31,840 nucleotides of DNA from positions 1-31,840 of the forward strand of contig CAUZNH010000001.1 of assembly GCA_963581345.1 (NCBI GenBank). The letters are read 5' to 3'. The stretch comes from Candidatus Thalassarchaeaceae archaeon (lineage in GTDB: Archaea > Thermoplasmatota > Poseidoniia > Poseidoniales > Thalassarchaeaceae). How positions within the stretch are numbered: position 1 is the first letter of the stretch; the number at the start of each line of letters is the position of its first letter. Below are positions 1,135 through 4,997 of the stretch, piece by piece. The notes below the pieces were generated by a model. It had not been told where the DNA came from. It ran no database searches and saw only the letters and a list, made by a program, of their open reading frames with translations. The position numbers and the translations under genes were made by a program.

Positions 1135-1205
1135 CAGTCTTCACCTTCGGTGAAGCCGCCGACCTAACATCGGTTCATAAAGGCCACCACCCAAGTTACT
1201 GGGTG
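1135..1205 (-). promoter_or_regulatory. Structured 5' leader of EF-2: SD-occluding hairpin plus shared rps12/fusA motif
   Basis: Perfect 7-bp inverted repeat CTTCACC-GAA-GGTGAAG (1155-1139) covers the SD. Also helix CCGAU/GUCGG (1173-1159) and hairpin CACCCA-6nt-TGGGTG (1188-1205). Confidence 0.55.
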
Positions 1206-1243: not shown

Positions 1244-2401
1244 TCATGAAGTTAGTAGAGAAGAGGGTTGCATCATTTCATCTAGAAGGGTCTGAAATTC
1301 TGTATTAATTCTGATAATTTTATCTTTTGTTTGTGCTATTTGGTCAATAATGATGCGCCTAGCATTTGAACTTGATTTGCGTAATTGCTCACGCCTTTCA
1401 TCTAGATATCTCAATGTGTCTCGCATTGCGGTAATACATTCTCTACTGCGTAATTCAAACAAATTCATATCATTCTTATTGTGATTCGGTTGTGATTCGA
1501 TTACAATTTTCGAGAAGGACGTCCTCATTTTTGCTGTTTCAATTGACGATTTCGGTGTTCTTTTCAGGTTTGAATTAAAATTAATTAGAGACCAAGCCTT
1601 AATCCACCACTTTGATGGATCCCAATGCCACCATTTAATTCCATTACGATAATCCGCTTGAAACGCATGATGAAAATTATGGTACCCTTCTCCAAATGTG
1701 AAAAAAGCAAGCCAAAGAGAATCCTTACTACTATTGCTAGTAGTATAGGATTGTTTTCCCCAAACATGGGCTGCAGAATTTATCAAGAATGTACCGTGGT
1801 GCACAAAAACTGTTCGAACTAAGCCACCCCAAACAAATCCACCAATAGCAGTTGGTATTCCGCCAATAGCATAACCTACTGCTGCTGGGGCAACCATACC
1901 AACTAAGAAACCGATAACAAAAATGAATCGGTGTTGTAATCTTATAACCCAATCTTTCTGTAAATCCCTAACATTAGAATAGTCTACCTCCCCATCTTGT
2001 TCATCTACTAATATCCAAAAGAAATGACTCCACCAAAAACCTCTCTTAGCATTATATGGGTCACCCTCTTGGTCTGTTTCTTTATGGTGCTGACGATGAT
2101 CACTGCACCATTCCAAAATTGAATTTTGAAACGCACCTGCACCAAATAATGCATACAGTATCCTTAGGGGCAATAATGCTTGATGGCTACGGTGAGAGAA
2201 TAGTCTGTGGTATCCGACAGTAATAGATAGTCCACAAGCAAAATACCATACGAAAAATATGCTCAGTTCAACCCACGTAATACCATATGTGATACCATGC
2301 CATATTGAACCTACCAAAGCCAAAACTGGAGTGAGTATAAGAAAAATCACATTTATCCAATTCAACTTTAATGTGTTTTTATTGCCGATTGATTCGGACA
2401 T
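1244..2401 (-). CDS. Membrane fatty-acid desaturase, delta-9 acyl-CoA/acyl-lipid (OLE1/DesA-like) family, with C-terminal coiled-coil extension
   Basis: Three His boxes (GYHRLFSH, DHRQHH, EGYHNFHH), DPYNAKRGFWWSH and DYRNGIKWWHWDPSKW motifs, hydrophobic TM segments. Confidence 0.93.
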   Translation of the reverse strand: MSESIGNKNTLKLNWINVIFLILTPVLALVGSIWHGITYGITWVELSIFFVWYFACGLSITVGYHRLFSHRSHQALLPLRILYALFGAGAFQNSILEWCSDHRQHHKETDQEGDPYNAKRGFWWSHFFWILVDEQDGEVDYSNVRDLQKDWVIRLQHRFIFVIGFLVGMVAPAAVGYAIGGIPTAIGGFVWGGLVRTVFVHHGTFLINSAAHVWGKQSYTTSNSSKDSLWLAFFTFGEGYHNFHHAFQADYRNGIKWWHWDPSKWWIKAWSLINFNSNLKRTPKSSIETAKMRTSFSKIVIESQPNHNKNDMNLFELRSRECITAMRDTLRYLDERREQLRKSSSNARRIIIDQIAQTKDKIIRINTEFQTLLDEMMQPSSLLTS

Positions 2402-2426
2402 AATATCACAGCACCATTCTTGTTAA

Positions 2427-2434
2427 TTTATTTA
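2427..2434 (-). promoter_or_regulatory. Putative TATA box for a leaderless desaturase transcript
   Basis: TAAATAAA ends about 26 nt upstream of ATG 2401, and no SD precedes the ATG. Confidence 0.4.
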
Positions 2435-2505
2435 GTATTCTATTAGCACTATTAACTTCAAGGACCTAAAATCCTAAAACGGAGCAGTTTCATGAATTGA
2501 AATTA

Positions 2506-3144
2506 TCAGCGTGCAGATGCAGCGATTCTTTCAACTTCTTCTCTCTTACCTATTGCGTAGGATGTAACATCCCCATTCGCAGCTTTTGAGATTTCAGTAA
2601 CGATTCCCTGAGTAAGTGTTCGAGTACTCTTACGTGTTGCTTGAGTAGAACCTGTAGCCAAGTGTCGAATAGCGACATCAATTCGACGCATTGGCGCACT
2701 GTCAACTGCTTTTGGCTGACTAACTGCTCCAAATTTAATTCGTGTAATCTCTTCCATTGGTGCTGAATTTGCTAATGCGTCAACAAACACTTGTAGTGGA
2801 TTGGTATCATCTCTCTCTGCAATCCGGTCCAAAGCTGCCTCAAATGCTTTTGTAGCAGTGATCTTCTTGCCAGTATATTTCCCAGTTCTCATCAATCCGT
2901 TGATAAATCTCTCAACAATTGATAACTTGCTCTTTCCAAACCAAGCGTTAGCGTGGCGTCCTCCAGTGTGGGGGATACCTACCGTTTTGAGATTGATGTA
3001 AGGTGCAATACCTGGGTCTTCACAAGAAACAGTAGTAGCATCCCATTTGTTGAATACAAGAGTACCAATTCCTGCGATTGGGGTTTCATTGACTACCTTC
3101 TCTTCGGCAGGTGCTTCTTCTTCTACTTCTGCTTCATCACTCAT
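2506..3144 (-). CDS. rps7: 30S ribosomal protein uS7
   Basis: LVFNKW, HTGGRH, KSKLSIVERFINGLM, NPLQVFVDALANSAPMEE, AVDSAPMRRIDVAIR, KREEVERIAASAR. SD GAGGTGA. Directly follows rps12. Confidence 0.98.
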   Translation of the reverse strand: MSDEAEVEEEAPAEEKVVNETPIAGIGTLVFNKWDATTVSCEDPGIAPYINLKTVGIPHTGGRHANAWFGKSKLSIVERFINGLMRTGKYTGKKITATKAFEAALDRIAERDDTNPLQVFVDALANSAPMEEITRIKFGAVSQPKAVDSAPMRRIDVAIRHLATGSTQATRKSTRTLTQGIVTEISKAANGDVTSYAIGKREEVERIAASAR

Positions 3145-3153
3145 TATTTCACC

Positions 3154-3582
3154 TCAGCGTATTGGCTTCTCTTTACGGCCTCTAACCATCTCATTAAGTG
3201 AGACTCCATTGACCTTGATTACCTTGAATCTAACTCCGGGGATATCTCCGTATGAACGACCCATGCGTCCACCGATTCCCTCAACCATGACTTCATCGTG
3301 CTCATCAATGAAATTGATTGCTCCGTCACCAGGTGCGAAGGCTGTCAACTTGTTTCCAGTCCGGATTAAACTGATTTTTACTGCCTTACGGATACCTGAG
3401 TTGGGCTGCTTGGCTTCAATTCCAACCTTCTCAATCACAATGCCCTTGGCTTGTGCTGAACCACCTAAGGGATCAGACTTTTGTTTGAGCTTAAGAATCC
3501 GCTTTTTGTACCCACGATCCTTCCAGCGAAAACGCTGCCTATCTCGCTTCATTTTCGCACCAGCAAAAAGTCCTCTTCCCAT
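3154..3582 (-). CDS. rps12: 30S ribosomal protein uS12 (archaeal/eukaryotic S23 type)
   Basis: [57 protein letters not shown]. Confidence 0.99.
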
Positions 3583-3685
3583 GGTTACACCTTGAAGCAG
3601 GCCGCCGTCCTACCCCGCATATATGAGTCCATCGGCATCGAACCCATAAGCATAGGCGCAGGGCAACGATTCTTACCTGCTTCAA
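3583..3685 (-). ncRNA. Candidate structured cis-regulatory leader (r-leader) of rps12-rps7
   Basis: Perfect 10-bp closing helix UUGAAGCAGG(3685-3676)/CCUGCUUCAA(3601-3592), UCGUU/GACGG, GCCCUGC/GCGGGGU, and hairpin GCCUAU-GCUU-AUGGGU. Six G-U pairs work only on the mRNA strand. Confidence 0.55.
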
Positions 3686-3731: not shown

Positions 3732-4997
3732 ATGGCATTCAGAGACCATCTCGATGGAGCAGTCAAGATTGACTCAATAAACCCAATTAATGAGATGAGA
3801 TTACTAATTGAGTCCAACCCAAACGACGCTATATTATTCACCAGTGTCGAAGGCGCAGTAGGCCATTCAGCAGCGGCAAATGTATGCCTTAGAGATAATA
3901 TGGTAAATCAATTTGACATTCAACCTGCCGAGTTACTTAAAACTCTAGAATGGGCAATGAATAACCGTTCAGAACCTGAAAAGTATCAAGGAAATGCACC
4001 TGTATTAGAGAATTCCATTGAACCTGTAGACCTAAGGAAATTGCCAATTCCACATCACTACCCTCAAGACCGAGGCCGTTACATGTCAGCTAGTATTATC
4101 ATAGCCGAACACGCAGGAATACGCAATGTATCCTTTCACCGACAATTTGTAAGAGATGAAAATCACTTAGTTGCTCGTTTAGTTCCTCGCCACCTCAGAA
4201 CCATGGTTGATGAAGCAAGAGCACAGGGTGATATAGTAAATATTGCAATTGTTAACGGAGCTGATCCTTGCCTTCTATTAGCTGCTGCAATGTCCTTCAA
4301 CGAACCAATTGATGAACTCACAGTAGCGTCCTCTTTGTATCAAAAATTCTACGGCAAGGCAATGCAAGTTATCACTTTAGAAAATGGTATAACAGTACCA
4401 GCAGATGCAGAGTATGCAATGTGTGCAACTATTACCAGCGAAGATGATGATGAAGGGCCATACATTGACATTACTGGCACCATTGATGATGTTCGCAAAC
4501 AACCTGTCATTGAAGTTCACTCTATCCACCATCGGAACAATCCTATATTTCATGCAATTTTACCCGCATTATCCGAACACCATGCACTAATGGGTCTCCC
4601 CCGCGCACCGACTATTTTCTCTAGTGTTTCAAAAGTGTGTGATTGCCGAGACGTTGTAATGACATCTGGTGGATCTGGTTGGCTTGCTGCAGTGGTTCAG
4701 ATTGTACCACAATCTCCAGATGATGCTAAAAAAGCAATAATGGCTGCTTTTAGTGGCCATCCATCTATGAAATCCGTAACAATTGTTGATACGGATATTA
4801 ATCCAACAGACCCAGTTAGGGTTGAGTGGGCATTAATGACACGGTGGCAACCAGATAAGGACACGGTAATCCTGAGTAACCAGCGAGGCAGTAGCCTTGA
4901 CCCTACTAGAACTGAAGATGGATTGACCTCAAAAATTGGTTATGATGCCACTATCCCATTTGGTAGTGATAAGAAACCATATACTTCTGTACTATAG
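3732..4997 (+). CDS. UbiD-family prFMN-dependent decarboxylase, probably anhydromevalonate-phosphate decarboxylase type
   Basis: LRKLPIPHHYPQDRGRYMSASI, RNVSFHR, VPRHL, VPADAEY, EGPYIDITGT, DDVRKQPV, VDTDINP...VEWALMTR, SSLDP, SKIGYDATIP. Confidence 0.9.
   Translation: MAFRDHLDGAVKIDSINPINEMRLLIESNPNDAILFTSVEGAVGHSAAANVCLRDNMVNQFDIQPAELLKTLEWAMNNRSEPEKYQGNAPVLENSIEPVDLRKLPIPHHYPQDRGRYMSASIIIAEHAGIRNVSFHRQFVRDENHLVARLVPRHLRTMVDEARAQGDIVNIAIVNGADPCLLLAAAMSFNEPIDELTVASSLYQKFYGKAMQVITLENGITVPADAEYAMCATITSEDDDEGPYIDITGTIDDVRKQPVIEVHSIHHRNNPIFHAILPALSEHHALMGLPRAPTIFSSVSKVCDCRDVVMTSGGSGWLAAVVQIVPQSPDDAKKAIMAAFSGHPSMKSVTIVDTDINPTDPVRVEWALMTRWQPDKDTVILSNQRGSSLDPTRTEDGLTSKIGYDATIPFGSDKKPYTSVL

Follow-up and report, generated by a model that had tools for sequence, protein, structure and literature searches.

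Why does the gene for a fatty-acid desaturase lie between the genes for ribosomal protein S7 and elongation factor 2 (EF-2) in a marine archaeon, where did it come from, and on what would its product act? The archaea of Marine Group II (MGII, Poseidoniales) belong to the most abundant archaea of the plankton; to our knowledge, none of them has been cultured. The composition of their membranes is an open question of the "lipid divide": none of the Poseidoniales metagenome-assembled genomes (MAGs) encodes the G1P dehydrogenase that defines archaeal lipids, most of them have genes for G3P dehydrogenase and fatty-acid degradation as well as plsC homologues, beta-oxidation has been reported, and mixed membranes have been proposed (PMC6461757, PMC6962369). 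A desaturase gene provides a testable handle on this question.

The enzyme is an archaeal addition to a known family. Members of its 90% cluster are already present in public databases under the names 'acyl-CoA desaturase [Candidatus Poseidoniales archaeon]' or 'stearoyl-CoA desaturase (delta-9 desaturase)', and we found no discussion of it in the literature searched. A search for fatty-acid desaturases in MGII/Poseidoniales returned only carotenoid (phytoene) desaturases, and the supplements of two MGII papers held no desaturase entry. Here we present an analysis of a 31,840-nt stretch of DNA, analysed as a whole and referred to as the window, from a Candidatus Thalassarchaeaceae archaeon. 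The source genome (G000) is a 1.34-Mb MAG that is 65% complete.

Gene order and integrity of the locus

An initial annotation, made from the sequence alone, had placed an open reading frame with three intact histidine boxes at 1244-2401, between rps7 and fusA and on the same strand as these. The gene was found exactly there, on the minus strand, encoding 385 amino acids with the boxes HRLFSH (residues 65-70), HRQHH (102-106) and HNFHH (241-245). It was identified by Pfam, its match to SCD1, an AlphaFold2 model, its metal ligands and dN/dS. Along the minus strand the order in the window is S12, S7, desaturase, EF-2. The cluster starts with S12 (uS12, 142 aa, 3154-3582; assigned by Pfam and neighbourhood), continues with S7 (uS7, 212 aa, 2506-3144; PF00177, 1.3e-34), and the last gene present is that of EF-2 (aEF-2, the fusA homologue; assigned by Pfam), of which the N-terminal 378 aa are encoded at 1-1134 before the contig end truncates it. 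S7 is here not directly followed by EF-2, as the 1158 nt of the desaturase and two spacers, both read on the minus strand, intervene. The first spacer, of 104 nt (2402-2505), carries the desaturase's own upstream region; in the second, of 109 nt (1135-1243), the EF-2-proximal ~55 nt form a conserved leader/promoter-like element. A UbiD-like gene (3732-4997) lies upstream of S12, divergent from it on the opposite strand, and the genes on the remaining contig are housekeeping genes typical of archaea (UbiD-like, prefoldin, L37ae, exosome subunits, SBDS, proteasome alpha).

Full-length EF-2 on other contigs has 735 aa and the gene following it is convergent, hence the cluster ends after EF-2. On one contig (L153:7521-9158, minus strand) the convergent gene directly downstream of EF-2 encodes a 562-aa protein with NUDIX and polyprenyl synthetase domains, possibly an IDI-like/prenyl-diphosphate synthase fusion.

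An assembly chimera could be ruled out. The identical desaturase protein was detected on at least 21 contigs, and in at least eight independent JGI/ENA assemblies it was surrounded by the same genes, i.e. UbiD on the opposite strand, S12, S7 and the 735-aa EF-2. The same junctions were present in relatives, and the arrangement was seen in two Poseidoniales families.

Protein fold and metal site

The protein matched the Pfam family FA_desaturase (PF00487) with 5.8e-18 and 66 bits, the cut-off being 29.7, and mouse and human SCD1 with 4.9e-44 and 1.5e-43, respectively. Besides the three histidine boxes, N208 and H212 are present. The ten di-iron ligands H65, H70, H102, H105, H106, N208, H212, H241, H244 and H245 were invariant in 89 aligned homologues, and all SCD1 ligands (H120, H125, H157, H160, H161, N265, H269, H298, H301 and H302) have their equivalent among them. 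The window protein has the same nine-His plus Asn di-metal site as SCD1, with the motifs HxxxxH, HxxHH, NxxxH and HxxHH.

An AlphaFold2 model built from a 40-sequence alignment had a mean pLDDT of 93.8 and a pTM of 0.89. When this model was compared by Foldseek with the SCD1 structures 4ymk, 6wf2 and 4zyo, the same fold was recognised, with target-normalised TM scores of 0.81-0.86 over about 290-300 columns, an rmsd of 2.5-3.1 Å and 30-31% identity. Four transmembrane helices and a cytosolic cap (the mushroom fold) are predicted. The window protein differs from SCD1 in its archaeal host and in a C-terminal extension of three long helices at residues 284-377 of the model, which is extra in the Poseidoniales protein. 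In nine close pairs of desaturase genes dN/dS ranged from 0.05 to 0.13. We concluded, as far as sequence and model can tell, that the gene encodes a di-iron membrane desaturase of the SCD1/Ole1 type, in agreement with the bacterial-type, O2-dependent, delta-9-family (SCD/Ole1-like) enzyme that the initial annotation had recognised in an MGII archaeon. Delta-9 regiospecificity on C16/C18 acyl chains is what membership in this family would suggest.

The closest relatives are stand-alone Ole1-like desaturases similar to DesA (SO0197) of Shewanella oneidensis, occurring in Gammaproteobacteria, Bdellovibrionota, Verrucomicrobiota, Elusimicrobiota and Acidobacteriota. These proteins have ~370-390 aa, are 38-48% identical to the window protein in alignments that span the C-terminal extension, and share with it a Phe at the position of SCD1 W262. 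Many of the ~380-aa bacterial homologues have the extension in common with it, since their alignments reach about residue 370. The Poseidoniales copies differ from the DesA-like enzymes in forming their own clade on a long stem (0.35). Of 40 relatives that are bacterial or unnamed, 15 have a Lys at position 133, whereas 30 of the 41 Poseidoniales copies have an acidic residue there. The Shewanella loci compared (L051, L061, L064, L073 and L078) may not be orthologues of SO0197 itself. The DesA family of Pseudomonas aeruginosa (NF049918, phospholipid delta-9 desaturase) also consists of membrane His-box desaturases; membership in it was rejected, as the match was weak (2.2e-14) with 53.4 bits against a curated equivalog cut-off of 400.

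Substrate, electron donor and acyl-lipid context

In SCD1 the CoA head group is bound by R155, D156, R188, K189, N75 and N148, and the thioester carbonyl by W262 (PMC9825965). By sequence alignment, which runs through a loop of lower confidence (pLDDT about 80, residues 131-140), the equivalents in the window protein are S100, D101, D133, E134, N17 and N93, with F205 for W262. The pantothenate-contacting Asn75 and Asn148 of SCD1 are kept as N17 and N93, whereas R155, R188 and K189, which contact the CoA adenosine and diphosphate, are replaced by S100, D133 and E134. The same tendency was seen throughout the 41 Poseidoniales copies, with Ser or Ala for R155, mostly Asp or Glu for R188, mostly Glu or Gln for K189, and Phe for W262. 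The basic CoA-binding residues together with W262, which would mark an acyl-CoA desaturase in the strict sense, were not found. The replacement of the basic residues makes an acyl-lipid substrate plausible: the enzyme may not take acyl-CoA in the way SCD1 does, and a lipid-bound acyl chain would be at least as likely.

Compared with SCD1, no fused cytochrome b5 domain is present in the window protein, and a search for cytochrome b5 (PF00173) in G000, a genome of 65% completeness, gave no match. The electron donor would probably be of the ferredoxin type.

A genome search for acyltransferases had been proposed in the initial annotation. PlsC-type acyltransferases (PF01553) were detected in 61 of 61 Poseidoniales genomes, usually two or three in each and two in G000, and in none of four control archaea. 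GpsA (PF01210) gave only weak matches in G000, of 32 and 23 bits. One of the contigs of G000 (C125) carries an ORF of the CD36 family (L126:3-857, minus strand; PF01130, 6.7e-11), divergent from an adjacent 562-aa PlsC-type acyltransferase (L126:895-2583, plus strand). CD36-family proteins are known from eukaryotes as lipid scavengers and fatty-acid translocases.

Distribution of the desaturase and the S7/EF-2 junction

The desaturase was found in 34 of 61 relatives, that is in 8 of 19 genera; of the 13 genera sampled there from the window's own family (f1), only three had the gene. In the phylum sample it was present in 5/21 of f1 and 28/42 of family f3. A synteny survey across MGII, also suggested by the initial annotation, showed that the arrangement at the str site, i.e. 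S12-S7-desaturase-EF-2, recurs in two families. Among the first 20 related genomes, 16 showed this order. It was present in every gene-bearing f1 genome of the sets searched (L001-L016, L019, L140) as well as in L022, and in the f3 genera g17 and g20, the S12-S7 pair being inverted in g20. Several named MAGs and one Poseidoniaceae isolate genome, AH-273-F07, had it too. An exception was L021, a g1-like named MAG contig, where neither S7 nor S12 was located in the 3.1 kb upstream of the desaturase.

Inversion of S12-S7 relative to desaturase-EF-2 was observed in L138 (g20) and L035 (UBA60), with the breakpoint between S7 and the desaturase, and the desaturase still adjoins EF-2 in both despite the inversion. 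The EF-2 match in L035 was split into three pieces.

Within the window's own genus the desaturase was not found in G004, G011 and G018, where S7 and EF-2 are 89-113 nt apart. The three are grouped together by a three-protein marker tree, which makes a single loss likely. Genera g15, g18 and g19 and family f2 have the desaturase at another location; S7 lies next to EF-2 in them, the g19 genome G058 being the exception. The gap between S7 and EF-2 in relatives without the desaturase measures 66-164 nt, and the flanking S7 and EF-2 proteins are 84-99% identical across the order. Judged by these comparisons of gene order, the junction between S7 and EF-2 is a slot of variable content in Poseidoniales.

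Other reading frames were observed in this gap, all on the minus strand: a 242-aa multi-pass membrane ORF in G041 (L110:432-1160), an ORF of ~165 aa in G044 (L106:1047-1544) and also in G040, and a membrane ORF of ~120 aa in G058 (L115:458-820). G041, G044 and G040 belong to g16, a genus without the desaturase. A Pfam scan of the gap ORFs of G041 and G044 gave no match.

The neighbours of relocated desaturase copies included GlutR-like, OYE-type reductase, MscS, SRP19, aminotransferase, GNAT and 3-hydroxyacyl-CoA dehydrogenase genes, with no consistent partner among them. In the single-contig g15 genome G038 (L141; G038:C1:825597-826624) the desaturase matched in two pieces, covering query residues 12-87 and 146-370, which is a probable decaying copy.

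Origin and composition of the gene

Phylogenetic trees were calculated with FastTree for 206 homologues and as an IQ-TREE quick tree for 89. All 41 Poseidoniales copies formed one clade (SH-aLRT 100; FastTree 99) that was nested among bacterial homologues of the five groups named above, at 38-48% identity. The phylogeny thereby bears out the horizontal acquisition from bacteria that had been proposed. Within the clade family f2 was basal, followed by the relocated copies of g15 and g18, and the last clade comprised g19, all of f1, and g17+g20. The f1 copies thus grouped with g17, g20 and g19 (SH-aLRT 98), excluding g15+g18, and were not sister to all f3 copies. The three-protein marker tree places g17 and g20 with other f3 genera, so the desaturase tree deviates from it in part, and some transfer within the order or rate artefacts may have caused the mismatch. 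With a midpoint root the marker tree splits f1, and rooting on the f2+f3 stem restores it; the drawn root carries no conclusion.

A low GC content had been pointed out as a weak sign of foreign origin. The total GC of the desaturase gene is indeed low, 37.7% against a genome mean of 44.4%, which corresponds to the 0.6th percentile of ORFs of at least 200 aa. As a foreign signal it did not hold: GC3 is 30.3% for the desaturase, 29.6% for S7 and 32.0% for EF-2, and the deficit is located in codon position 1 (43%, mean 56%). The low total GC is explained by amino-acid composition. With a GC3 like that of the two neighbours, nothing in the composition speaks for a recent arrival, and recent transfer judged from GC content was ruled out on this basis. 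The clade spans three families and the gene is under purifying selection. The insertion implied by the initial annotation was a recent one; as read from these comparisons, the desaturase gene is instead old and order-wide in Poseidoniales.

Upstream regions of the desaturase and of EF-2

The spacer between S7 and the desaturase (2402-2505, minus strand) contains an inverted repeat TTTCA-N5-TGAAA at 2488-2502, a conserved GTTAATAGTGCTAATAG block at 2440-2456 that is kept in L001-L006, and a GGTG Shine-Dalgarno-like site at 2412-2415. Close relatives have both the inverted repeat and GTTAATAGTGCTAATAG in common upstream of the desaturase. In the other family the desaturase is preceded by a palindrome GGTGTTGC..GCAACACC followed by CCCCAACGGTCAATAG, and a GTCAATA(G/A)-like motif is found before the gene, also at non-str sites.

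In L016, L024 and L030 (Poseidoniaceae) this palindrome was near-perfect, GGTGTTGC-(2-4 nt)-GCAACACC, and preceded the start of the desaturase by about 45-65 nt. In L024 one arm has a G-to-A change and the other arm the matching C-to-T. The palindrome is a candidate operator or hairpin. Degraded versions of it accompany relocated copies (L017, L027).

When the str-site copy was compared by BLASTN with two relocated copies, homology began about 12-15 nt after the S7 stop and stopped at the end of the ORF. The moved segment consists of the ORF and about 65-85 nt of its own 5' flank. That this flank moves with the ORF points to an autonomous unit, and we infer independent transcription. The initial annotation had suggested a placement for co-expression with the growth operon, and against this stands that the desaturase has its own conserved 5' region, which travels upon relocation. 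No conserved clear terminator after S7 was seen in the comparison of upstream regions.

On the EF-2 side, order-wide conservation was seen in the ~55 nt before the EF-2 start (about 1135-1190, minus strand), in genomes that have the desaturase as well as in those that do not. The element consists, in this order, of CCTTTATGAACC (1172-1183), AGGTCGGC and a short hairpin containing an AAGGTGA ribosome-binding site. It may act as a promoter, TTTATGAA being TATA-like, or as a leader RNA, or combine the two functions. Since it is conserved regardless of the desaturase, the desaturase was inserted upstream of EF-2's own control region. With this leader, and with a gap that holds other cargo or nothing in related genera, the tight S7-EF-2 unit assumed earlier was not borne out. 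The position between S7 and EF-2 is the lesser point, as EF-2 brings its own conserved leader and cargo is tolerated in the gap before it.

AAGGTGA is located in the 3' arm of the leader hairpin, and the arms co-vary between genera (TTCACC/GGTGAA, ATCACC/GGTGAT, CCAACC/GGTTGG). Part of the EF-2 leader, CCGATG...AGG(T/A)CGGCGGC...AAGGTG, resembles the rps12 leader at 3583-3685.

Interpretation of the locus

We consider it about 70% probable that the gene encodes a functional SCD1/Ole1-type desaturase, acquired once from bacteria and kept as a self-contained module in a permissive gap, which desaturates fatty-acyl chains. A Poseidoniales ancestor would have acquired the gene once, and thereafter it would have been inherited mostly vertically, often lost and sometimes relocated. 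In G000 the module would comprise the ORF and about 65-100 nt of its own 5' region, sitting between the end of S7 and the conserved leader of EF-2 and forming no integral part of an S7-EF-2 unit. Its substrates would be C16-C18 fatty-acyl chains, lipid-bound at least as likely as CoA-bound, in which the enzyme would place a cis double bond (delta-9, to judge by the family), and the electrons would probably come from a donor of the ferredoxin type. That Poseidoniales handle fatty-acyl chains is suggested because PlsC-type acyltransferases are universal among them and beta-oxidation and G3P dehydrogenase are reported. The likely role would be to tune the fluidity of fatty-acyl-containing lipids.

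Two other histories of the gene have to be weighed against the single ancient acquisition. The gene could be a recent bacterial insertion into the str operon of the window's lineage, co-transcribed with S12, S7 and EF-2 for high expression during growth. The common strand, the short spacers of 104 and 109 nt, the low total GC and the bacterial nature of the nearest non-archaeal homologues would fit, and read-through from the S12 promoter is possible, no clear conserved terminator being seen after S7. Monophyly across three families, an identity of only 38-48% to any bacterium, a GC3 equal to that of the neighbours and the same position in two families nevertheless largely refute the recency part of this reading, and co-transcription is opposed by the 5' element that moves with the gene and by the EF-2 leader that is independent of it; as a whole we regard this history as very improbable. 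Somewhat less remote, yet still unlikely, is that the str-site copy spread between Poseidoniales families by homologous recombination in the conserved S7 and EF-2 flanks, rather than being ancestral with many losses. The grouping of f1 desaturases with g17, g20 and g19 of f3 to the exclusion of g15+g18, which differs from the marker tree, the presence of the gene in so few of the f1 genera and the strong conservation of the flanks across the order all speak for such a spread. Within f1, however, the desaturase tree roughly follows the marker tree, the S7 and EF-2 proteins of f1 carriers showed no excess similarity to those of g17, and a faster evolution of relocated copies may draw them to the base of the tree; the trees are quick or FastTree ones and the marker tree is built on three proteins.

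The other part of the reading that can be questioned is the substrate. The enzyme could act outside the membrane lipids, on isoprenoid chains, on fatty acids, free or bound to CoA, that are scavenged for catabolism, or on another lipid-like metabolite. No fatty-acyl lipid is known from MGII, the CoA-contact residues differ from those of SCD1, and some relocated copies have beta-oxidation-type neighbours (3-hydroxyacyl-CoA dehydrogenase in L042, OYE-type reductase in L034). Against this, ligands and fold are those of delta-9 acyl desaturases, and beta-oxidation can proceed without prior delta-9 desaturation. Archaeal isoprenoid chains are made unsaturated and are then reduced, and such chains need no O2-dependent desaturase; the isoprenoid substrate considered in the initial annotation found no support. 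The closest relatives are the stand-alone bacterial Ole1-like desaturases, and genetic evidence shows that DesA of S. oneidensis supplies unsaturated fatty acids to the membrane under aerobic conditions (PMC4273635). A substrate outside the membrane lipids therefore seems rather improbable to us, and we prefer fatty-acyl chains.

An order-wide desaturase gene under selection makes most sense if acyl chains are structural and not only food. We tentatively suggest, as a possibility that falls short of even odds, that glycerol-3-phosphate membrane lipids with ester-linked fatty-acyl chains, or mixed acyl/isoprenoid ones, are made or remodelled by Poseidoniales, with the enzyme as an acyl-lipid desaturase for homeoviscous adaptation. 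If true, this would be a bacterial-style mechanism of membrane fluidity in a free-living archaeon, and the lineage-specific pattern in which the gene is kept, lost or relocated would reflect membrane strategies that differ from one MGII genus to another.

SCD-like desaturases of other Thermoplasmatota

SCD-like desaturases were also observed in other Thermoplasmatota (f10, f28, f29, f32-34 and f48; G066-G315; loci L143-L152), often with two copies per genome. They have archaeal hosts and the same ten metal ligands as the Poseidoniales protein, whereas the identity to it is only 28-36% and they form a separate, very distant clade. They have a Trp at the position of SCD1 W262, and their Asn contacts differ. 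On the evidence of these comparisons, their gene is a separate acquisition or lineage.
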